Source: an uncultured Pseudomonadales bacterium (lineage in GTDB: Bacteria > Patescibacteriota > Microgenomatia > UBA1400 > PJMF01). From it: a DNA stretch of 64,000 nt. The translations under genes were made by a program, and so were the position numbers. Positions within the stretch are counted from its first letter, which is position 1. Each line of letters opens with the position of its first letter. The notes under the pieces are model-generated. The model made no database searches. It was not told the origin of the DNA and saw only the letters and a program-made list of their open reading frames with translations. Location: the NCBI GenBank assembly GCA_964570365.1, contig CAZMXT010000002.1:57752-121751 (forward strand), read 5' to 3'. Positions 43,648 through 55,775 of the stretch are shown piece by piece.

Positions 43648-45349
43648 AGGCATAGGCTTCGATTCCAGGATCAAAAATTAATTCCAACGTATGACGCTGT
43701 GATGAGCTCTTCAGATCCAAAATATCATACTTACGAGGCTCAGAAACCATAATTTCTCCGCCCTGCAAAGTATCTTGTGTAAATGCAGCTTCTGGGAGTG
43801 GCTGTCCATCAAGCAGCACCCTCACTTTACCTGGACTTCCTGTAGAGCTGGCTAAAACTAGGTGGACTTTTCGTGCCAGAAAACTCAATGTCATGCGTGC
43901 ACCAGCAGCTTCTGCCCGCACATTCTCTCCCTGGACGGTCCAGTTCCCCTCTAACCCAACTGCATCATTAGCAAGTGGATCGCTCAACTGGTACAAAGCG
44001 GTCTTATCTATCTGGATGGAGTTTTGACGGGTGTAGGAGGCGGCACGCTGCCACCCTAGATAGGTTTCTGGCGTTAGCTTGACTCGCGGCGTTGCCTGCC
44101 CTTCCTCGATCTCACTTTTCTCCAACGGAGCTTCATCCAAAAGGGTTCTAATTGCATTTTCCGTTTCTAAATACTTCCCTTCACCAAAATGGCTGTAGCG
44201 AATCTGGCCATTTTTATCAATCAGATAGTGAGCTGGCCAGTACTGATTCTGATAGGCTTTCCAGATCTTAAACTCATTATCTAACACTACCGGGTACTTC
44301 AACTCAAAATCTTTCACCGCTTTCTCAACATTTGCGAGTTTTTTCTCAAACTCAAACTCAGGTGAATGGACCCCCACAATCACGAAGTCTTTGTCCTTAT
44401 ATTTTTCATGCCAAGCTCTCAGGTATGGGAAAGTACGAATACAGTTAATGCATGAGTAAGTCCAGAAATCTACCAGCACTACCTTACCTTTGAGTTCATT
44501 TTCTAGACTAAGTGGTTCAGAGTTTATCCATGCTCCCCCCGCGGTGAAGTCAGCGGCTTTTACGCCCGTAGTCTGCAGCTTTACAGGTCCAGCACTTGAG
44601 TTACCACTCAGCTTACTAAGCTCAGATCGCACAAATCTATTATCCTCAACTGCAGTTAAACCAGCGCCATATTGGGGAAACTTCTCTAGTATATAGGCTT
44701 GGAACTGACGATCTATATTAAAGAAAATTGCCATGCCAGTCAGAATCATGACTACCCCAAATATTTTCTGAATTTTATTGGTATTTCGAAGTAACCAGGG
44801 ATTTTTTTGTAGTAGTTGCCTGCCTCCATACGTGATGGCTAACATCGGAATAGCTGTACCCAGAGAATAGGCCAGTGTAATAAATAAAGTTAAGAAACCA
44901 ACCTGACTAGTCGCGGCTAAAGTAATCACTGAAGCCAGAATGGGACCCACGCAGGGGGCCCAGATCAAACCCAGACTGAGTCCGACCAAGATACCTCCCA
45001 AAAACCCAGAGTTTGAAGAATTTTTAGGAGTTAGCTGAGAGAGGCGGGAAACCAACTTTTCCAACAGAACCTGAGTCTGGGGAACCAACAAAGAGATTCC
45101 AAAAAAAATAATCATTCCCACAGCAAGAGTGCGCAGCACATCCGCGGAAAGCCCGGTTGCTTTTACTAAACTGGACAGAGCCAAAGTAAAGAAGGTAAAG
45201 CTGAGAATAAAGCCAGTTACAATTCCAAAAGGTCGCCGCTTACCTTCCCCCACCGAACCAGACAGAATAATTGGTAAAATCGGCAAAATACAGGGGGAGA
45301 GGATCGTTACCAATCCAGCAATAAAAGCAAATAAAATAAGTAACGTCAT
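43631..45349 (-). CDS. DipZ-like protein: CcdA/DsbD membrane domain + thioredoxin-like (CxxC) domain + C-terminal beta-rich domain
   Basis: CILPILP CcdA motif, WTYSCINC thioredoxin motif, ~150-aa C-terminal extension. Confidence 0.75.
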   Translation of the reverse strand: MTLLILFAFIAGLVTILSPCILPILPIILSGSVGEGKRRPFGIVTGFILSFTFFTLALSSLVKATGLSADVLRTLAVGMIIFFGISLLVPQTQVLLEKLVSRLSQLTPKNSSNSGFLGGILVGLSLGLIWAPCVGPILASVITLAATSQVGFLTLFITLAYSLGTAIPMLAITYGGRQLLQKNPWLLRNTNKIQKIFGVVMILTGMAIFFNIDRQFQAYILEKFPQYGAGLTAVEDNRFVRSELSKLSGNSSAGPVKLQTTGVKAADFTAGGAWINSEPLSLENELKGKVVLVDFWTYSCINCIRTFPYLRAWHEKYKDKDFVIVGVHSPEFEFEKKLANVEKAVKDFELKYPVVLDNEFKIWKAYQNQYWPAHYLIDKNGQIRYSHFGEGKYLETENAIRTLLDEAPLEKSEIEEGQATPRVKLTPETYLGWQRAASYTRQNSIQIDKTALYQLSDPLANDAVGLEGNWTVQGENVRAEAAGARMTLSFLARKVHLVLASSTGSPGKVRVLLDGQPLPEAAFTQDTLQGGEIMVSEPRKYDILDLKSSSQRHTLELIFDPGIEAYAFTFGG

Positions 45350-45401
45350 ACCTCTCCCCCTACTAAAAGTCTGCGCTGCTATGTGAGCGGCAGAGCCAAG
45401 A

Positions 45402-46025
45402 CTACATCTTGCTTGGCATTAAGACTGAGTTAATGACGTGTGTCACACCATTACTCGAGATCACATTAGGTGTGTCCACAGTGGCAGAGTTGCCCTTTGC
45501 ATCTTTAATCATGACTGTGCCATTTTGTACCACCACCATCAGTTGTTCACCTTGAACAGTCTTGAGCTTTTGACCATCTTTAAGGTCAGCCGCAACATAA
45601 CGACCGGGGACGACGTGGTAGCTCAGAAGACTCGCCAACTGCGCCTTGCTTTCTGGCTTTAACAGACCTTGAAGCGTAGCGGCAGGTACTTTATCAAAGG
45701 CTGCATTGGTTGGAGCAAAAACAGTGAAGGGACCTGGTCCACTCAGTGTCTCGACTAAACCGGCAGCTTTTACTGCACTCACTAAGGTCGTCACAGTACT
45801 CGCGTTCATCGCATTTTCCACGATGTTCTTAGAAGGCACCATCATCGCACCCCCAACCAACACGCCGTCTTCTTTCATCATGGGTGGTGTACTGGCCATC
45901 ATCGCTTGATCTGAACTTTCAATCTTACTCGATGGTGAGGCTGCAGGCGCACTCTGAGGCGAGCAAGCTCCCAAAAATAAGGATGTCATTAATAAGCCGC
46001 CAGCAAAAATTGCTACTTTTTTCAT
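45402..46025 (-). CDS. fasciclin (FAS1) domain lipoprotein
   Basis: Lipobox LGAC; FTVFAPTNAAF and NGVTHVINSVL FAS1 motifs. Confidence 0.75.
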   Translation of the reverse strand: MKKVAIFAGGLLMTSLFLGACSPQSAPAASPSSKIESSDQAMMASTPPMMKEDGVLVGGAMMVPSKNIVENAMNASTVTTLVSAVKAAGLVETLSGPGPFTVFAPTNAAFDKVPAATLQGLLKPESKAQLASLLSYHVVPGRYVAADLKDGQKLKTVQGEQLMVVVQNGTVMIKDAKGNSATVDTPNVISSNGVTHVINSVLMPSKM

Positions 46026-46180
46026 ATAAACCTTTCAAAACTGAAATTATAATTGCAATCGTAAATGAAGTCTCATCCCTCCTTCTGCTGTAGTACAGCG
46101 GTTTTTACTTTGCTTGCAGCTATTTCGAGACGAATCTAAAGTCAGGATTCAAGTAAGTCTTCATAGAATAGCACATTCTC

Positions 46181-47194
46181 GTGCTAGAATCTATGAACGT
46201 GAAAAATTCTTTGCCTCTCCAAACTCTCCAGCTCTTCGGCAGGCTTTGGGTGATCGGCACATCTGTTATTGGGACATTAGTAGTGTGGGGTTTTCTCTTT
46301 TTATTCGTGATGCTGCGAAGTTCTTCCGACCAGGGTACGGAGCCTTCTTTAAATCAAAAAACTCTTCGTCAAAATGGACCTGATAAGATTGCCGTGGTGA
46401 ACTTGAATGGACCAATCTTCGACACTGATGCAGGCCCATTTTCTGGTAGTGATGCAGCCATCTCAGCCCAACGAGTCACTCACTTACTAGAAAAGCTGCA
46501 AAATGCAGATGATGTTAAGGCCGTCATTCTCAAAATTAATAGCCCAGGCGGTGCCGTAGTTGCCTCAGATGAAATCTATCAACAGGTTAGATTGCTTCAA
46601 CAACATAAAGTGGTCGTTGCTAGTCTAGGTGACGTTGCGGCCTCCGGTGGCTACTACATTGCTAGTGGGGCAAATAAAATTGTTGCTAATCCGGCCAGTA
46701 TCACTGGCTCAATTGGGGTAATTGCTCAGCTGCCACAATTAAGTGGGCTGTATGAAAAAATCGGAGTTGAGATGCGTACTATTAAGTCTGGCGAGTTCAA
46801 AGACATTGGTTCGGAGTCACGAGACACGACGGCTGAAGAACAAGCAATTTTCGACTCCATTATTAAAGATTCTTATGACCAATTTATTCAAGCGATTGTG
46901 ACCGGTCGAAAAATGGATGAGGCGAGTGTTCGCAAACTGGCTGATGGCAGAATCTATAGTGGCAAGCAGGCAAAAGCGAACGGGCTAGTAGACGAGCTGG
47001 GTGACTTTCAAACCACTATCAAAATAACCGAAGATCTGGCTCGAATTTCCAATGCAACGCTGGTGGAGTACTCAGACCAAAGTTTTTTTGAGAGTCTACT
47101 GAGCTCAAAATTTTCTAATCTTTCTGGCTTAAAAGTTTTTGAAAAAATGATCCCTACCCAACAGTTTGGGATTTACTACCTCTTACAAATTTAA
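46181..47194 (+). CDS. sppA: signal peptide peptidase SppA (36K type)
   Basis: 337 aa, TM then the S49 peptidase core (GDVAASGGYYIA...GSIGV). Confidence 0.8.
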   Translation: MLESMNVKNSLPLQTLQLFGRLWVIGTSVIGTLVVWGFLFLFVMLRSSSDQGTEPSLNQKTLRQNGPDKIAVVNLNGPIFDTDAGPFSGSDAAISAQRVTHLLEKLQNADDVKAVILKINSPGGAVVASDEIYQQVRLLQQHKVVVASLGDVAASGGYYIASGANKIVANPASITGSIGVIAQLPQLSGLYEKIGVEMRTIKSGEFKDIGSESRDTTAEEQAIFDSIIKDSYDQFIQAIVTGRKMDEASVRKLADGRIYSGKQAKANGLVDELGDFQTTIKITEDLARISNATLVEYSDQSFFESLLSSKFSNLSGLKVFEKMIPTQQFGIYYLLQI

Positions 47195-47213
47195 CGAAAT
47201 CATCCGTCGCAGT

Positions 47214-48272
47214 TTATGCCGCTTGGGTGCTAATTTTCTGCATTAAACTCCGAGCTATTTTCTTGCCAAAAAGTCGGAACTGAGCAATAAAACCTTGGTC
47301 ATGCTCTAACTTCCCAATGACTCCGCCTATATATAATCCTGGTTGTTTCTTGGATTGATGATGTGTATCTAAATCTAAACACTCTGCTCTGTCATCTTGA
47401 CCTTCAGCCACAAACTCTTTGATCAGCTCAATGTTGGGCAGAAATCCTGTACACATAATCGGCCGAGTAGCAGAAGCGAGTTGCTGCCCTGATTCACTCT
47501 CTAGAACAAAGTGTTTATCTTGACTATAAATTCGCTTTACCCGGAAATTTTCTATTATCTTGACTAGTCCTTGCAGCTCAAGTTCTTTTACAAACTTCAT
47601 GTGCTCCTTCCATAGGCAATCCACTGGCTCTGGAACTATATAGTCATGCGCAGTCACTAAGATTACGACCCGGCCAGGTTTAGCTAGCTGCATAACTAAG
47701 CCGCTTGCCCCATTGGCACCACCCACAATCGTCACTTCGGTAGCATCTAGTTCATCTAGATAAGCCAAGCGAGCATAGTGAGTATAGGCGCCTTCAGACT
47801 CCAAACTCTCATTCGGATTCGAGTACATTCCTGTGGCCCACACCAAATACTTAGTTCTTACTTCTTCGTCTGCTCGGGTCCAGAGGACAAACTCTTGTTT
47901 TACTTGATCAAAAGCAACCTTCATTATCTGGGTATTCTGACGAGTAGGAATCTTTTTTGTGTCAGCTACATGTGCTAAGTACTTTTGATACATCCTGTGA
48001 CTAGGGTGGGGAATATTGTTAAAGACATCACTGGTTTTAACATCTGCAATCATATTATCATCATGGGATTTAGTACTTTCAGAGATCAGTCTCGTGTCAT
48101 TCGGGTACTCCAACCAGGCTTGACCTATGACTCCACGATCAATGACCAACAGTTCTTTTGGCTCTAAACCTGCATCTATCAAAGCCGCTGCAACAGAGAG
48201 ACCACCAGGGCCAGCTCCAACAATGACTACTTGAAAGAAATTAGACATGTCCCCGAGTATACGCGTAAACAA
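47214..48272 (-). CDS. FAD/NAD(P)-binding disulfide-reductase-like flavoprotein (thioredoxin reductase/YpdA-like)
   Basis: GAGPGG dinucleotide motif at the N-terminus and a second Rossmann motif GGANGASG. Confidence 0.65.
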   Translation of the reverse strand: MFTRILGDMSNFFQVVIVGAGPGGLSVAAALIDAGLEPKELLVIDRGVIGQAWLEYPNDTRLISESTKSHDDNMIADVKTSDVFNNIPHPSHRMYQKYLAHVADTKKIPTRQNTQIMKVAFDQVKQEFVLWTRADEEVRTKYLVWATGMYSNPNESLESEGAYTHYARLAYLDELDATEVTIVGGANGASGLVMQLAKPGRVVILVTAHDYIVPEPVDCLWKEHMKFVKELELQGLVKIIENFRVKRIYSQDKHFVLESESGQQLASATRPIMCTGFLPNIELIKEFVAEGQDDRAECLDLDTHHQSKKQPGLYIGGVIGKLEHDQGFIAQFRLFGKKIARSLMQKISTQAA

Positions 48273-48287
48273 ACTGGAGTAAAACTA

Positions 48288-48869
48288 TTAGAATTCTAAA
48301 AAGTTAATATCAAAAGGCAGTTTCTCGGCCCAAGAACGCAACACTTTTTCTAAGGTTGATTGAGAAGGCTTTTTGTAAAGTAAGTACGTGCCAATAGCAT
48401 TCTTTATTTTTGCCTCCTCTGCATCAGGAATGATGAACTTCCAAACTTGAATACGCGGAAAAATACTTCTAATAAAAAGAACTTGTCCAGTGTTTTTTTC
48501 TTCTATCCAAAATTGAGAAAGATCTGGCCAAAAAAAATAGCGTTCACCATACTTGATCCCAATTGTCGTAACAGAGCATAGTAAATGAGCTGGGGGCACT
48601 GCGGAAAGTATCATATATAAAAACCCTAACACCAGTAGAACCACAGCCAGTAAGATCTCCTGCAACAAAATTAACAATAACAATACTAAAAGCATCAAAA
48701 TAAATAAATGTTTTTTCTCTGAGGAAGCACGTTTTTTGGTCAATTTATTGGGTGCCTGCCACTCTACCAGCATTTTTTCCTGGACCACGTACCGATCCAG
48801 ACCTAGGGGATCCTGATAAAATTTTTCTGGGAAACTTTGATTATTAGGAAATTCTTGTGTAGGAGACAT
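48288..48869 (-). CDS. hypothetical membrane protein
   Basis: 193 aa; Leu-rich double TM hairpin. Confidence 0.45.
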   Translation of the reverse strand: MSPTQEFPNNQSFPEKFYQDPLGLDRYVVQEKMLVEWQAPNKLTKKRASSEKKHLFILMLLVLLLLILLQEILLAVVLLVLGFLYMILSAVPPAHLLCSVTTIGIKYGERYFFWPDLSQFWIEEKNTGQVLFIRSIFPRIQVWKFIIPDAEEAKIKNAIGTYLLYKKPSQSTLEKVLRSWAEKLPFDINFLEF

Positions 48870-49017
48870 CTTTATACATATCTTACGGCTTTCTTTTTAC
48901 TTTGACAATAAAACAACTTCTTACGGAGTTAGAGAGATGTCTTCAGGATTGTAAGAAATACGTAAGGATCAAGAGAAAAACAATTGAGTGCAGAGGCATT
49001 TCTTGGTAAGATACGGT

Positions 49018-49689
49018 ATGGTTTACTCAATCCTTATTGTTGAAGATGATCTTGGTGTACAAAAGTATCTCCGCGAACTTTTGCTGGATAATGGCTACTC
49101 AGTCCAAACAGCTGGAGATGGCATTACCGCATTAGAAGCAGTCAAAAACTCACTTCCCGACTTAATTATTCTTGACCTAAATCTTCCCAATATGCGCGGA
49201 GAAACTGTCTGTGCAGAAATTCGAAAAAATTACCCGGACATGCGAGTAATTATTTTAACTGCGAAAGATAGTGTCAATGATATTGTGCAAGGCTTAAACT
49301 TAGGTGCAGATGACTACATGACCAAACCATTTGTGGCAGATGAATTTTTGGCTCGTATCAAAGCCAGATTACGACGGAGAGAACAAAAATCAGCTGTCTT
49401 AACTGTAGGAGATTTAGTATTAAATACCAAAACCTTAGAAGTCCACCGAGGCGAAGAATTAATTTCTCTTACTCCTCAGGAGTTCAAGCTCCTGCAATAT
49501 TTAATGAATAACAAGGGTCAGATCTTGACTCGGGAAATGATCTTAAATCGAATTTGGATGTACTCTCCTGATATTGAAACCAGGGTCGTAGACGTGTACA
49601 TGGGATACTTGCGCAAGAAAATTGATAAAGTCAATCCGAAAAAATTACTTGTTTCGGTTCGAGGTTTTGGCTACATGATTAAGGGTTAA
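49018..49689 (+). CDS. OmpR/PhoB-family response regulator
   Basis: Receiver (ILIVEDD...D...KPF) plus winged-helix domain; the ORF opens at 48988 but MVYSILIVEDD is the likely start. Confidence 0.8.
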   Translation: MVYSILIVEDDLGVQKYLRELLLDNGYSVQTAGDGITALEAVKNSLPDLIILDLNLPNMRGETVCAEIRKNYPDMRVIILTAKDSVNDIVQGLNLGADDYMTKPFVADEFLARIKARLRRREQKSAVLTVGDLVLNTKTLEVHRGEELISLTPQEFKLLQYLMNNKGQILTREMILNRIWMYSPDIETRVVDVYMGYLRKKIDKVNPKKLLVSVRGFGYMIKG

Positions 49690-50429
49690 GTTACTGGCTG
49701 GACGGGTATAAAAATAGTTACGGAAGTTCCCTTCCCCAGATTTGAGCATAGTGCGATTTCGCCATGGTGTTGCTCTATAATTTTCTTGCTCATATACAGA
49801 CCTACGCCCATTCCTTCTTGCACATTATCAGTACTTCCTTTTTGAAACTCAGTAAATATGCGCGCCAATACTTCTTCTGACATACCTTGACCCTGATCTG
49901 TAATTTCTAAAATTAGTTGTTTCTTAGTACGTCTCAATACGATAAAAACCTCACTCAGGGATTTAGAGAACTTAGAGGCATTCTCTAAAATATTTAAAAT
50001 CACTTGTCCAATTTTATCCTTGTCACCAATAAATTGATCATTTTCTTCTGTAAGCAGATTTTTATACGAGAAAGTGCAGGATGGACAGGCAATAACTACT
50101 TCGTCAACGTTTTTTTGAACAATCAGACCAAGATTGCAATTTTCGAATGTGTATTCTAATTTTCCTGCCTGAATTCTGTTTAGTAGCAAAAGTTCATCCA
50201 CCATTCTGGTTAAGCGCAAACTCTCTTGCCGCAAACTTTTGAGCCAACCTTTTTCTTTTTCTAAGTTACTACTTACAATTCGTTTTTCCAGCAACTGTAT
50301 ATACCCATTGATACTGGTTAAGGGGGTTTTTAGCTCATGAGCGGTCATTGATAAGAACTTATCTCTCACTTGCAGGGCTTCAGTTGATTTACTGTAAAGC
50401 TGAGCCTTTCGAATCGCTAGGGTAGCCAT
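49686..50429 (-). CDS. histidine kinase core (HisKA+HATPase), probably the 3' part of a frameshifted GAF-sensor kinase
   Basis: H-box MTAHELKTPL, G-box GMGVGL; its reading frame stays open upstream to 50549. Confidence 0.7.
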   Translation of the reverse strand: MATLAIRKAQLYSKSTEALQVRDKFLSMTAHELKTPLTSINGYIQLLEKRIVSSNLEKEKGWLKSLRQESLRLTRMVDELLLLNRIQAGKLEYTFENCNLGLIVQKNVDEVVIACPSCTFSYKNLLTEENDQFIGDKDKIGQVILNILENASKFSKSLSEVFIVLRRTKKQLILEITDQGQGMSEEVLARIFTEFQKGSTDNVQEGMGVGLYMSKKIIEQHHGEIALCSNLGKGTSVTIFIPVQPVT

Positions 50430-50497
50430 TGTACCCAGGAGCTTGCATGCCTCTAAGTCTGATTTTTGCCACGCTATTTCTTTATTAGAAGAAACAC

Positions 50498-50860
50498 TCA
50501 GGACACCAATTGATTTTTTTGATAATAGAGCGGGATGAAAACAACAGACTTAATTCCTAGCTTAGCAATGATCGGCTGGGGATCAACAAGTTGTGTTGCT
50601 GAAAGGATGATCGGAGTTTTTCTCAGCGAAGCTCTGTAAATATTCCCTCTCATCCGTGGCTTGAGCTTTGCAAGTTCAGCCGAGCTAGAATACACCTTCT
50701 CTAACCGCCGACTATTCTTGAGAAAGATTGAAGCATATTTAGCATCAAGAATCTTAATTGCTTCGTTAACAATTGTTTTATACGTTTCTGCAAGACTAAG
50801 TGGCAGAAGTAGCTGAACCGCACTCTGATTTATTGTTCGAAAGACATTTTGTTTTAACAT
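50498..50860 (-). CDS. GAF-like domain fragment (5' part of the split sensor kinase)
   Basis: 120 aa ending 68 nt before the kinase ATG; an A7 run (T7 on the plus strand, 50514..50520) lies in the frame-switch zone. Confidence 0.5.
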   Translation of the reverse strand: MLKQNVFRTINQSAVQLLLPLSLAETYKTIVNEAIKILDAKYASIFLKNSRRLEKVYSSSAELAKLKPRMRGNIYRASLRKTPIILSATQLVDPQPIIAKLGIKSVVFIPLYYQKNQLVS

Positions 50861-50866
50861 TTCTTT

Positions 50867-51226
50867 TCAAGAAATAAAAAGCTGAATTTTCTGCAAAAAT
50901 TCTTCCATTTCAAAAGGCTTAGAAATGAAACCATCAGCTCCGCACTTCTTCGCTAGTACTTCTCCGTCATTTTCTGCTGACACTATAATAACCGGTATTG
51001 AGGCAAACACTGGATTATCTTTGATTCTTTTCACTACTTCACAACCATCCTCTCCTGCAATCCACATGTCCATTATTAACAGATCTGGCTTTACTTTCAA
51101 AAGCATGGTTTCTATGCTAGTAGCGTGACTCAGACTAGTGGCAAGATAGCCATTTTCTTCTAAGATAATACTCAGCACTTCGCGTATGCCTTGGTCATCA
51201 TCAACTAAGAGGACGTGCTTACTCAT
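50867..51226 (-). CDS. single-domain response regulator (CheY-like receiver)
   Basis: LLVDDD...DLLIMD...KPF. Confidence 0.75.
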   Translation of the reverse strand: MSKHVLLVDDDQGIREVLSIILEENGYLATSLSHATSIETMLLKVKPDLLIMDMWIAGEDGCEVVKRIKDNPVFASIPVIIVSAENDGEVLAKKCGADGFISKPFEMEEFLQKIQLFIS

Positions 51227-51249
51227 TAGTTGGGTATTATGACAGATCT

Positions 51250-51561
51250 TTACAAATTATTCTTTTTAGATTCTATTTCTCTTTTTATATCATCAGTAGC
51301 TTTCTCTACTTTTTCTCCTGCTTGTGAACGAGCGTTTTGAGCACCTTCTTTTACTTTCGAAACACTTTCTTCTGCATGGCCTTGAATTTCTTCTACCTTT
51401 TTCTTCACATCAGCACTTACCTGCTCCACTTTATCTACAACCTTTTTCCTTCTTTCCTGATCACTTAAAACCACTGCGGCGGCGGCGGCTCCGATTGCAG
51501 CTCCTACCACTAGAGGACCCATCATTGATTTTTTAGGAGTTTTATCTTGAGTATTTTTCAT
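51250..51561 (-). CDS. YtxH-like protein
   Basis: GPLVVGAAIGAAAAAVV TM then a Lys/Glu-rich coiled coil. Confidence 0.55.
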   Translation of the reverse strand: MKNTQDKTPKKSMMGPLVVGAAIGAAAAAVVLSDQERRKKVVDKVEQVSADVKKKVEEIQGHAEESVSKVKEGAQNARSQAGEKVEKATDDIKREIESKKNNL

Positions 51562-51636
51562 TTGGTTCTTTCTTTATTGAAGGGGCAATACAGATTCACT
51601 ATATTGCCCCTTCCGTCTTGTTTAAGGTGGTCTACC

Positions 51637-51891
51637 TTATTGGGCCCTTCGCAGCATTCTGGCAGCCGCTACTACTAACACAGCTCCAATAACGGCAACG
51701 ATGAGGCTGTAGAGGTTGAATCCTGTTACGCCTGATTGGCCAAAGAAGTTCATTGCAAAGCCCCCTACAATCGCCCCTACAATTCCCAGGACAATGTCTC
51801 CGACTGGTCCTTGGCTACCGTTGCTTTTCATTAGAATTGATGCAACCCAGCCAGCAATTGCTCCAAAAATGATCCAGAGAATAATGTTCAT
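51637..51891 (-). CDS. GlsB/YeaQ/YmgE-family stress membrane protein
   Basis: 84 aa, Gly-rich TM helices, typical of the family. Confidence 0.7.
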   Translation of the reverse strand: MNIILWIIFGAIAGWVASILMKSNGSQGPVGDIVLGIVGAIVGGFAMNFFGQSGVTGFNLYSLIVAVIGAVLVVAAARMLRRAQ

Positions 51892-52005
51892 ATGTTGCTC
51901 CTCCTTATAAATTGTTAATTAGGATCTGTGTTCTATTCTCATCATTATCAGTGATAACAGTGTGAAGCTTAGGTAAGAGGAACGTAAGAATATGGATGAG
52001 CTATC

Positions 52006-52374
52006 TTAACTCAGCCATTTTTGGACCTTAACAATAAATTCATCTGGAAGGACATCGCTCTTAATAAGAAAATCTGAAACTCCTAATTGAGCTGCTTTTT
52101 CAAAAATACTTTCCTGATCTAAGTTAGTTAACAGAATTATTATGGGTAATTTTTTTATTTTTCTTTTCCGAAGAGAAGCTAATAGCTCTAAACCATCCTT
52201 CTGGGGCAGCATTACATCCAATAAAACTAGGTCGTAGGTATTTTTAATAATCTTTTTGAGTCCTAGCATGCCATTCCCAACTCCCTCCACCCGAAAACCT
52301 GCTTTTTTGAGCAGAAAAATATATAACTCCAGTAGAGCTGGTTCATCCTCAATAATCAGTATTTTTGAATCCAT
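52006..52374 (-). CDS. single-domain response regulator (CheY-like receiver)
   Basis: ILIIEDE...DLVLLD...K motifs. Confidence 0.75.
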   Translation of the reverse strand: MDSKILIIEDEPALLELYIFLLKKAGFRVEGVGNGMLGLKKIIKNTYDLVLLDVMLPQKDGLELLASLRKRKIKKLPIIILLTNLDQESIFEKAAQLGVSDFLIKSDVLPDEFIVKVQKWLS

Positions 52375-52377
52375 AAT

Positions 52378-54510
52378 TTAATTTACCGGTAATTGAATTG
52401 AAAAAGATGTACCTGATTTTTTTGAAGAAGTCACCTGAATGCTTCCACTATGTAGCTGAATAATTTGCTGGGAAATATACAGCCCCAATCCTGTTCCTGA
52501 GTTGACCATTTTTTGATAAGAATGCTCAATTCTACTGAACTTCTGAAAAAGCTTTTGTTGATCTTTTTTATTAATACCCGGACCACTGTCTATAACTTTA
52601 ATACCTACTATGAGGCTCATATGGCTTACTTCCACACTTACCTTTCCATTTACTGGAGTAAACTTCAGAGCATTCCCGATAATATTTTGCAGAACTTCCC
52701 GTATTTTTTCCTGATCAGCAATAATATTTACTTTTTTGGTTGTTGGGTTGAAAATGAAGCGTATTTTTCTCTCATCTGCCTTTACTTGGAGTTCTTCTTT
52801 TACTTGAGATATAAGATGTATTACATTAAAACTTTTCAATTTCAGTCCGAAATGATTTCCCTCTATTCTAGAAATCATCAACATGTTTTTTACAAGATGA
52901 ATCAGTCTTTCAGATGACGCGTAAGCAATCTCTAAATGCTGTCGAACCTCATTTGAAAGAGTTGAGGATCCTTGAAGAGACAGCCAAAGATAACTCTTAA
53001 TTGCAGTTAAAGGAGTTCGCAGCTCATGGGAAGCGATAGTAACAAACTCGTCCTTCAATCGATCTAATTGTCTTAGGGTAGCGTTGGTCTTTTGCAACTT
53101 TCGAGTCGCTCGAGCCACTTCCTGCTCCAGTTTTTGATTAAAGGTTGAAATTTCGTCGTAAGAAAGAGCATTTTTCACTGCAATCGAGAGTTGAGGACAC
53201 AAAATTTCTAAGACACTTAGGTCTTCTAAAGTGAAGTCATCACCAGACGATTTTTCTCCTAGAAATAAAGTGCCCATTAATTTCTCCCCAACTCTTAGAT
53301 CCAAGGCGGCCATTAGCCCATATTTTCTAGCCATTTCCTTTCCATCTGATTCTGGAACTTCACTAAAAAGCAGTATTTTCCTTACAGAAGAAAAATCCGA
53401 ACTCAACAAATAGAATCTTTTCTCAGCTTCTCTAGTAAGGTTTTTTTTATCGGTGCTGAAAACAGCATTCTGACTACCTGGTATAACCAAAGTTAAGGAG
53501 CTAAACTTCATTTCCTGTTGAAGCTTTTTGAGGAACAAAGAAATAAGTTCCTGAAGGACAATATTGGTGGAAGCAATATGAGCCAGTTCATGCAGTAACT
53601 TTCGAGCATCATACGCGTTCCGGAAAAAAACTTTTTCTGTTAATTTTTCGATGAATCGCCTAAGTGGCTGGAAAGTAAGTGCCGCAAATACGGAAACGAT
53701 CACCCCATAAACTACATCTACTGTATCGCGCTGCTGTTCTGTAAAAAATTCTCCTAAGAGAAAAAGTCCTCCAATATAGAGCAGCGCAACTGTAGACATA
53801 AAGAATAGATACCCGAACGAGCGAACAATAACAAATTTAATATCCAGCAAACGATGTTTGACAATCGCATAAGTCAGAAATATAACCAGAATGAGTGAAA
53901 AGCTTGGACCCAAAGCAACCATGCTTAAGTTATTCCAAACTACTACTGCAAGAAAGTTAGTAGAAAAACCCAATGCTACAGTCAAAATCAAACCCAGCAC
54001 TACAAAGAAAACTTGAGCTTTCTGCCTTCCCATTGAGTTTCTATACTTTGAAACTAAACTTAAAAATGCAGCCAGACTAAGCATGGAAAAGTTCAAGCCA
54101 TAAAGGGCAGCAGCAGGGCCGGGTGTTAAGCTAGGTTTCCCACCTACAAAGCTGTAGCTAGAAAACATTAACGACGTGGGCGTTAATAGCAGAACGCATG
54201 CTGTTACCGCTGTAAGAAAGACTAACAATACTCTGTTTACTTTTTCAGGTTTATTAGGAAAAAAGTAAGCAATCAGAAAAAAAACCAGTGGAATTGGAGT
54301 AGTAACAAACATTACTGCTCGCACCCAAAATAAGCGTTGAGCTGCATCAACAGGCAATAACGAGCAGGTATTTGCAACTGTCCACAAGGTCAGCAGAAGT
54401 ATAAAAATCACTACCAAAATATTTACTGGATGTCTTCTATTTCTGAGAAAAACTAAAGTAGCTAAACAAAGATTAGTAACAATAGTAATGACTGCAATGT
54501 AGATAATCAT
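52378..54510 (-). CDS. sensor histidine kinase with a multi-TM N-terminal sensor
   Basis: ~8 TM helices, HisKA (IASHELRTPLT), HATPase (GTGLGL); ORF to 54555 but the likely start is MIIYIAV. Confidence 0.8.
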   Translation of the reverse strand: MIIYIAVITIVTNLCLATLVFLRNRRHPVNILVVIFILLLTLWTVANTCSLLPVDAAQRLFWVRAVMFVTTPIPLVFFLIAYFFPNKPEKVNRVLLVFLTAVTACVLLLTPTSLMFSSYSFVGGKPSLTPGPAAALYGLNFSMLSLAAFLSLVSKYRNSMGRQKAQVFFVVLGLILTVALGFSTNFLAVVVWNNLSMVALGPSFSLILVIFLTYAIVKHRLLDIKFVIVRSFGYLFFMSTVALLYIGGLFLLGEFFTEQQRDTVDVVYGVIVSVFAALTFQPLRRFIEKLTEKVFFRNAYDARKLLHELAHIASTNIVLQELISLFLKKLQQEMKFSSLTLVIPGSQNAVFSTDKKNLTREAEKRFYLLSSDFSSVRKILLFSEVPESDGKEMARKYGLMAALDLRVGEKLMGTLFLGEKSSGDDFTLEDLSVLEILCPQLSIAVKNALSYDEISTFNQKLEQEVARATRKLQKTNATLRQLDRLKDEFVTIASHELRTPLTAIKSYLWLSLQGSSTLSNEVRQHLEIAYASSERLIHLVKNMLMISRIEGNHFGLKLKSFNVIHLISQVKEELQVKADERKIRFIFNPTTKKVNIIADQEKIREVLQNIIGNALKFTPVNGKVSVEVSHMSLIVGIKVIDSGPGINKKDQQKLFQKFSRIEHSYQKMVNSGTGLGLYISQQIIQLHSGSIQVTSSKKSGTSFSIQLPVN

Positions 54511-55775
54511 TGATTGTTGGATAGTTGTTGAAAGAATTGTTCTGCAACCACACAAGCCGCCGCTACGCTCAAGCTTTGAGGGATGGGTGGTTTCTTTTTA
54601 AAGTACACACCGTGAATAGTTTCTCCCACTACAGTTGTAGGTTGAATACTATTCGGTTCACTAATAATTTTTACTGGCAATCCGTGTTTTCTCAGCACGC
54701 GGTGAAGAGCCGGCTGAGTATTAAATATTTCATGACTTACATCAGGCCAATTTCGAGCAATTCCTTCATGGATAATCATCATTAAACTTGCACTCACAGT
54801 CGCCCTATCAGCTTCAGAAGCAACTTGTTTGAGTAAATCTGCCGACACTACATTAAGCCGTGTAATCTCAGCTAAAGAACTTTCCGGAAGATCAGCAAGC
54901 TCCTCTCCATCTTGGTTGTAAGCAAAACTGAGAGCGGCTTGAGTTGGTAAAGAGCTCAAAAGACTAGGATGAATTTGGGGAGCTCCAGCCTCAATCTTGG
55001 TTTCTCTTAGGGATTTTTCCCCACTTCCACGCATGGCGCCCATTGAACCTACTATGTACTTTTTGCCCTGATGTGAAGCAATAACTAGTGCCACCAAGTA
55101 GTCGTCTCGAAAAGAATGCATCATTGCTAGAAGTAACTCAGCTTCTAGTTGCTGGCGGTAGCGGAGTTGCAGCCGTTCGTAATTTTTTCCAGTGACTTTT
55201 TTCCCTGATGCACTTAGAGTACCTAATGCTATTTTTTCGGCTACTTCAGAGGTTTGGAGGAGTTCTCTAGCATATATATGGGTTGACATATCAACGATTT
55301 GAGCAATAAATCCTAAGTTTAAAAATTGAATTAGTCCGCACCACAAGCTTAAATTTTGGCCATCTATCTCTACTTGAATTGCACTTTCTGAAATACTTTT
55401 ATAGTCGGGATCCTTATTTACATACCAATAAGCTTTATCATAAAAATGATAAGTAGGTAGACTTACAATACTCAGAGGGTGGGAACTCTCGTAATACAAC
55501 TCCTGATGAAGAGCAAAAATATGTGCCATACTTTCTAGCTCCAGTGATTTTAGTCCCGGAGATCTAAACCTTTCTATTTCTCTAATAACACTCCTAACTT
55601 TCTTAGTAATTTTTTGTTTCTCAAGATCTACTACTAACCTCATACTTTCAAGATAATTAACATCTTCTAGACCATACAAAGTTGTTTGTCCTTCAGTTCC
55701 AGATCCATCTATTAATCTTTTTCCTTCTCTTAACATTTTTTCTCCTATGTGGAAGATTATAGCTTGATAGATCAA
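54507..55775 (-). CDS. hypothetical protein (422 aa)
   Basis: Long clean ORF upstream of the kinase; no family recognised. Confidence 0.5.
   Translation of the reverse strand: MIYQAIIFHIGEKMLREGKRLIDGSGTEGQTTLYGLEDVNYLESMRLVVDLEKQKITKKVRSVIREIERFRSPGLKSLELESMAHIFALHQELYYESSHPLSIVSLPTYHFYDKAYWYVNKDPDYKSISESAIQVEIDGQNLSLWCGLIQFLNLGFIAQIVDMSTHIYARELLQTSEVAEKIALGTLSASGKKVTGKNYERLQLRYRQQLEAELLLAMMHSFRDDYLVALVIASHQGKKYIVGSMGAMRGSGEKSLRETKIEAGAPQIHPSLLSSLPTQAALSFAYNQDGEELADLPESSLAEITRLNVVSADLLKQVASEADRATVSASLMMIIHEGIARNWPDVSHEIFNTQPALHRVLRKHGLPVKIISEPNSIQPTTVVGETIHGVYFKKKPPIPQSLSVAAACVVAEQFFQQLSNNQ

Follow-up and report, generated by a model that had tools for sequence, protein, structure and literature searches.

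The closest described relatives of the gene considered here are the GAF sensor histidine kinases of the Patescibacteria, in which a GAF domain (PF01590 or PF13185) is followed by HisKA (PF00512) and HATPase_c (PF02518) domains within 384-396 residues. Named examples include P0013, a 'GAF domain-containing sensor histidine kinase' from a Candidatus Levybacteria bacterium, and P0083, from Candidatus Daviesbacteria. Frameshifts at runs of A within otherwise intact genes are on record from the poly(A) genes of Buchnera and Blochmannia and from the 9A cases of E. coli, where an additional A in the mRNA restores the frame; these tracts measure at least 9 nt (in a few IS elements, 8 nt), and related organisms have several of them in common (PMC1088944). 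Selection against slippage-prone runs is evident from about 9 nt in many bacteria, 8 nt being productive in a few cases (PMC1088944). In dnaX and in IS3/IS911, a slippery heptamer, A_AAA_AAG, is accompanied by a downstream hairpin or pseudoknot.

The locus compared here with these systems lies in a stretch of 64,000 nucleotides of DNA (the window) from an uncultured bacterium, probably a member of the Patescibacteria/Microgenomates. The gene is encoded on the minus strand which, around the frame change, reads ...CTC TAT TAT CAA AAA AAT CAA TTG GTG TCC TGA... The features of the locus and its immediate neighbours are as follows.

50498..50860, minus strand: ORF1, 120 aa, with its TGA stop at 50500-50498 (open reading frame list; GAF profile)
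50514..50520, minus strand: run of seven A (A7) where the frame changes, seen as T7 on the plus strand (sequence and edited tracts)
50430..50513, minus strand: segment from the A run to the ATG of ORF2, encoding in the kinase frame the final, conserved strand of the GAF domain and the beginning of the linker helix, SIGVLSVSSNKEIAWQKSDLEACKLLGT
49686..50429, minus strand: ORF2, 247 aa, the end of the GAF/linker helix followed by intact HisKA (DHp) and HATPase_c domains (Pfam, alignment)
50867..51226, minus strand: stand-alone receiver (REC), 119 aa, PF00072 (open reading frame, Pfam)
49018..49689, plus strand: convergent OmpR-type response regulator, 223 aa, intact and SNP-free in all contigs

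The positions of the homopolymer and of the two open reading frames, and the 68-nt gap between the latter, are exactly those of the original prediction, made from the sequence before the present analysis. The first ~114 residues of ORF1 form the N-terminal part of a GAF domain; six out-of-frame residues and the TGA follow, seven codons past the frame change in the A7 sequence, and the domain lacks its last β-strand and its C-terminal helix. The frame of the kinase (frame 2), on the other side of the break, reads VCCFHPALLSKKSIGVLSVSSNKEIAWQ upstream of ORF2 and, as had been predicted and as its translation confirms, stays open as far as 50549, where it is bounded by a TAA at 50552-50550. The ATG of ORF2 corresponds in the family alignment to a conserved internal Met, part of the motif GSMASLAIRKAQLY, and its H-box is MTAHELKTPL. 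No gene caller assigned the segment 50430..50513 to a gene. Editing the tract in silico showed which changes of length would join the two frames: lengthening to A8 (+1) yields a single 391-aa ORF and shortening to A5 (-2) a single 390-aa ORF, while with A6 (-1) stops are met after 10 codons and no fusion results. The earlier statement that a 1-nt indel fuses the frames consequently holds for an insertion and fails for a deletion. An insertion of one nucleotide at any point of 50511-50521 restores the frame with the length typical of the family, and in the strict sense the lesion can be placed no more narrowly than in this interval of 11 nt. Translation of UGA as Gly (genetic code 25) was also considered and rejected: ORF1 would then stop at a TAG eight codons later, and in the neighbouring genes TGA serves as a stop codon.

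After the A8 edit, the Pfam GAF profile (PF01590) is matched from position 2 to its last position, 133, by residues 23-150 with a score of 43.1 bits; for ORF1 alone the match covers positions 2-99 only and scores 23.9 bits. HisKA (PF00512) scores 58.9-59.1 bits (cutoff 26.9) and HATPase_c (PF02518) 91.7-93 bits over profile positions 1-110 of 111. In an alignment of 18 family sequences, the residues found to be invariant include H175, the phospho-acceptor His of the H-box, with E176, T179, P180 and L181, and, in the N and G boxes, N294, D322, G324, G326, G350, G352 and G354. Read in the kinase frame, even the 68-nt 'spacer' encodes the family-invariant G119 and L141, together with V120, conserved at 90% or more. 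At the break, the repaired protein has IPLYYQKKSIGVLSV where the family consensus has IPLSYKxKSIGVLTV, and as many residues separate the invariant P110 and G119 in the one as in the other; the A8 repair thus reproduces the length of the family and its motif KSIGVL. An AlphaFold2 model built on the family alignment has a mean pLDDT of 82, with most of the GAF fold at 80-90. In this predicted structure, the break sits in the turn between GAF strands 105-113 and 116-125, and Met145, the first residue of ORF2, falls within a long helix, 133-197, that runs from the GAF into the DHp domain. Since the Pfam match, the alignment and the model coincide in this respect, the split is placed within a folded, modelled GAF domain rather than in a linker. 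ORF1 and ORF2 are one gene, their juxtaposition being more than chance, and the prediction of a single GAF-HisKA-HATPase gene split at a homopolymer is borne out by the Pfam match across the break and by the homologues described below. The complete N-terminal sensor domain exists only after repair in silico, and the three domains do not share one continuous frame, the change of frame at A7 and the ensuing TGA being present likewise in 11 other contigs; for this reason the locus is classed among the pseudogenes, and not the functional members, of the GAF-HisKA-HATPase (class I histidine kinase) family.

When 5.8 billion protein clusters were searched, 2172 homologues were obtained, of which 120 were listed. 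All but one of those listed are undivided ORFs of 383-566 aa, and 111 of these 119 have precomputed matches to a GAF family, HisKA and HATPase_c; the exception, P0001, is truncated and derives from the very locus described here. Orthologues that are also split, which would have pointed to a genuine two-gene arrangement, were thus not encountered: all 119 other listed homologues are undivided. Those with a named organism come mostly from Patescibacteria/Microgenomates (Levybacteria, Daviesbacteria, Blackburnbacteria). An intact 391-aa copy of ~100% identity was not found among the 5.8 billion clusters, nor was any orthologue of more than 45% identity found outside this population. An alignment-based scan of genome contigs gave, among the matches listed, generic histidine kinases and one family member (L016, 40% identity); none of these matches was a close orthologue. 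The loci of intact homologues are not syntenic with the window, save for a convergent OmpR-type regulator downstream of the kinase at the P0023 and P0104 loci.

Two other features of the homologues may be recorded. The best-scoring proteins, P0002-P0009 (555-566 aa), carry two tandem GAF copies before the kinase core, so that duplication of the GAF domain has occurred in this family. In all four intact homologue loci examined, an unannotated gene of 326-409 aa directly follows, or overlaps, the kinase stop (L096, 2972-4090; L097, 4155-5135; L099, 2165-3196; and the P0104 locus), and a Walker-A-like GxxGxxK[ST] motif can be discerned by eye in each. By BLAST, no similar counterpart exists in the window, and the three readable proteins show no similarity to one another.

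The split gene lies between putative partners. The REC gene stops 6 nt upstream of the ATG of ORF1, and because of this short distance the two probably belong to the same operon. On the other side, the 3' ends of the kinase and of the OmpR-type regulator, likely its cognate partner, overlap by 4 nt (49686-49689), which leaves no room for terminators between them. SNPs occur in the REC gene at 51079 and 51107 and three variants of its protein are on record, so at least one of these SNPs must be non-synonymous; the OmpR-type regulator, for its part, is invariant. Further upstream, a gene for a 103-aa, Lys/Glu-rich protein without a Pfam match (51250..51561, minus strand) has an in-frame 3-nt deletion at 51476-51478 in two contigs (L007 and L013; 102 instead of 103 aa). 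Just upstream, at 52006-54555 on the minus strand, are a 7TM-HisKA kinase (a 725-aa ORF, 710 aa as called) and a second stand-alone REC (122 aa). This second two-component pair, with a small Transgly_assoc gene and the 103-aa gene, makes the region a dense signalling cluster.

The state of the tract in other assemblies was assessed by looking up the exact sequences of ORF2 and of the OmpR-type regulator beside it, this latter included because ORF2 alone would favour the split state. The look-ups gave 15 loci, representing 13 distinct contigs, of which 11 cover the tract: five from JGI metagenomes (3300020180, 3300020219, 3300020596, 3300020203 and 3300021515), one from an ENA assembly (ERZ505514, metaSPAdes-style) and five from Logan run assemblies. 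The other two, L014 (JGI 3300020213) and L015 (Logan SRR6831528), end short of it at 50441 and 50314, respectively, and in none of the 13 is there a contig break at the tract itself. At consensus level, all 11 contigs and the window have A7, and no A8 consensus is on record from any sample, whether in these contigs or among the protein clusters. The contigs are 99.84-100% identical to the window and their SNPs are combined in shuffled ways, which indicates that several haplotypes share A7 and that a single consensus has not simply been copied. Over the aligned stretch of 5.7-10.7 kb per contig, the only gaps are the in-frame 3-nt deletion mentioned above and one 1-nt insertion. Eleven other runs of at least 7 nt in 44686-55429, four of them 8-mers, are length-invariant among the contigs. 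A gapped pattern allowing for tract length matched nothing in the genome or metagenome contig collections, nor did a plain downstream pattern in the metagenome collection; the samples concerned are evidently absent from these collections, and the scans are silent on A8.

The window as a whole was also scanned for homopolymers situated between two long open frames, and six other sites were flagged. Five were inspected as ORFs and discarded as ordinary gene junctions or off-frame noise (rplQ/rplM, a helicase and its neighbour, the inside of EF-G, and the 5' region of an aldo-keto reductase among them); the sixth, at 46356-46361 on the plus strand, falls within a called gene, 46193..47194. With no other homopolymer-split gene in the 64 kb among the five sites inspected, the assembly does not appear to be error-prone.

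The 1-nt insertion is confined to a single contig, L011 (JGI 3300020203 Ga0163148_10000087, 108 kb).

About 50395, minus strand: second 1-nt insertion, an extra A changing CTTTACAG to CTTTAACAG; in contig L011 only and not in the window

It constitutes a second frameshift, 120 nt downstream of A7, which brings a TAA into frame 11 codons into ORF2; the gene caller accordingly gives a 220-aa product (P0001) that starts at MTAHELK. The two lesions do not compensate for one another, since four outer-frame stops lie between them. No other polymorphism of the aligned stretch breaks a reading frame, and this one lies in a gene that was already broken. A second lesion in a broken gene is what relaxed constraint predicts, here from a single contig; a Logan contig of the same SNP haplotype, L008, does not have it, and the insertion may represent either a variant of low frequency or a mistake of assembly.

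Taken together, these observations make it probable that the gene for a cytoplasmic GAF-HisKA-HATPase sensor histidine kinase became a pseudogene recently, through a frameshift found throughout the sampled population. Of the three explanations offered with the original prediction, a real pseudogene is the best supported. The lesion itself, its place within the domain, its presence in every available assembly and the intact state of the listed homologues are directly shown; that the split products are non-functional and that the inactivation is recent are conclusions drawn more indirectly. The base lost was most likely an A of the run, which would have passed from A8 to A7 by replication slippage: the homopolymer is the most mutable element of 50511-50521, and A8 (CAA AAA AAA TCA) would give Q-K-K-S, matching the K-S of the consensus. 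At this site P0023 has YKKKSIGVL and P0104 has YQKKSLGVI. In the DNA of four homologues, the corresponding codons form interrupted runs that are in frame (AAA AAG AAA, CAG GAT AAA, AAA AAT AAA and AAA AAT CAG), which is consistent with an unusual mutability of an uninterrupted A8.

The course of events may be envisaged as follows. An ancestral gene of ~391 codons would have carried the A8 tract in the turn of the last GAF β-hairpin. Replication slippage would then have removed one A, so that translation would now end seven codons on, at the TGA of 50500-50498, giving a 120-aa GAF fragment devoid of the final strand and helix, and the downstream kinase core would be left without translation signals of its own. 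The deletion would have gone to fixation, or close to it, in a single natural population. The split products are presumably non-functional. A recent date is suggested by there being one fixed lesion, by the otherwise intact domains and by a population diversity of ~0.1%. Both halves of the gene are otherwise intact, its only SNP, at 50322, is synonymous (CCC to CCT, Pro), and the likely partner regulators, REC and OmpR-type, are intact too, all of which speaks against a fully dead gene. With these last observations purifying selection on ORF2 remains compatible; they fit a very recent inactivation equally well.

Other explanations have to be weighed against a recent pseudogene, beginning with those that turn on the length of the tract. 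Homopolymers are classic error sites and one added base repairs this gene perfectly, so that an organism truly possessing A8 and an intact gene might have been misread by sequencing or assembly. That A7 recurs in 11 distinct contigs differing in their SNPs, with JGI (at least six samples counted), ENA and Logan all represented, effectively excludes such an indel, one of the three options in the original prediction, and the constant length of the other long runs in the same contigs, the absence of a further homopolymer-split gene among the inspected sites of the window and that of an intact 391-aa version from the protein collection all argue to the same effect; we regard an artefact as hardly credible. 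The same census bears on a phase-variable ON/OFF switch, toggling frequently between A7 and A8 through replication slippage in a population that happened to be sampled in the OFF state. A mononucleotide tract inside a signalling gene, with a single-step change that restores the frame, is the configuration such a switch would have; yet neither an A8 consensus nor an ON (391-aa) allele is on record, the tract being A7 in 11 of 11 distinct contigs at consensus level, no contig breaks there and four nearby 8-nt runs show no length polymorphism. In classic contingency loci, moreover, the tracts are longer and mostly lie in genes for surface or restriction functions. The switch, or slippage, put forward as the third option has found no positive support, with no A8 consensus, no stimulatory structure and too short a run, and phase variation seems exceedingly improbable.

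Two readings in which the gene would still be expressed merit closer comparison with a pseudogene. In one, a little full-length kinase is made by leaky rescue, RNA polymerase now and then adding an A on the A7 template or the ribosome slipping by -1 on A_AAA_AAU, and suffices to keep the gene under selection; the junction would then read QKKS or QKNS. The run does form an X_XXZ_ZZN heptamer in the ORF1 frame (cA AAA AAT), relative to which the kinase frame is -1, the halves are intact with their single SNP synonymous, and the needed +1 A is of the predominant type among transcription errors, which concentrate in A/T runs and rise exponentially with run length (PMC5574713). Against this, a run of 7 nt is below the length at which transcriptional slippage is productive, typically at least 9 nt and 8 nt in some taxa (PMC1088944), and heptamers that lack a stimulator do not exceed, in E. 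coli, ~10 times a background of 0.055% (PMC4066793). RNA folded over the 54, 74 and 114 nt that follow the run gave z values of -1.73, -0.25 and -0.86 and was indistinguishable from shuffles, the sequence upstream of A7 contains no SD-like GGAGG, the two-frame layout with its slippery site is conserved in none of the other 119 listed homologues, and the second frameshift of L011 would defeat any rescue. We consider rescue unlikely. In the other reading, two functional genes are present, the 247-aa HisKA-HATPase protein being translated from the ATG at 50429 and acting on the adjacent regulators, alone or together with the GAF fragment, as a constitutive kinase or phosphatase that lacks a sensor. 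Its DHp and catalytic domains are complete, partner regulators on both sides are intact, and lack of an SD is not disqualifying where about half of the window's genes have none; the value for this ATG, -2.2 kcal/mol, equals the window mean. The break nevertheless falls inside a domain and not at a linker, the 'intergenic' 68 nt still code for conserved GAF residues, the start codon is an inherited internal Met before which no new SD has arisen, no promoter-like or terminator-like site was found between ORF1 and ORF2, none of the 120 best matches of 2172 is a split homologue from elsewhere, and the L011 haplotype cuts ORF2 off after 11 codons. A two-gene arrangement is, on this showing, quite unlikely. 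More speculative, and very improbable in our estimation, is that A7 serves as a low-efficiency recoding element or phase switch in a CPR/Patescibacteria two-component system, rare A8 mRNAs or cells supplying a trickle of full-length kinase against a majority of truncated GAF product, which would tune signalling through the adjacent REC and OmpR-type regulators.

In practical terms, the proper annotation for the 120-aa and 247-aa ORFs (the latter 220 aa in one assembly) is a single GAF kinase pseudogene with a frameshift, in place of two hypothetical genes. The locus offers a clean case of a homopolymer split that is real and not a sequencing artefact, as shown by agreement across assemblies. 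It suggests a small-genome bacterium in the course of losing one two-component sensor whose partner regulators are still intact. An event of this kind is well known, as is the gene family, and matters little beyond annotation; were slippage rescue or a switch to prove true, the locus would count among the rare instances in which a signalling gene of the CPR is recoded.

Compared with dnaX and IS3/IS911, the window likewise presents an X_XXZ_ZZN heptamer with the downstream frame at -1, but the heptamer ends in U and not in the G of efficient bacterial motifs (PMC4066793), no significant structure starts 5-8 nt downstream, the zero-frame stop is only seven codons away and homologues show no conservation of the arrangement. 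With the slippage genes of Buchnera, Blochmannia and E. coli it shares an A-run frameshift in an otherwise intact gene that a +1 A would restore; its tract, however, is of 7 nt and has no conserved counterpart. As to the GAF sensor histidine kinases of the Patescibacteria, the repaired protein, at 391 aa, falls within their range of lengths, has their three-domain order and is 38-45% identical to them over 96-100% of the query, with all invariant residues kept, and the window's kinase differs from them in that its frame is broken inside the GAF domain.
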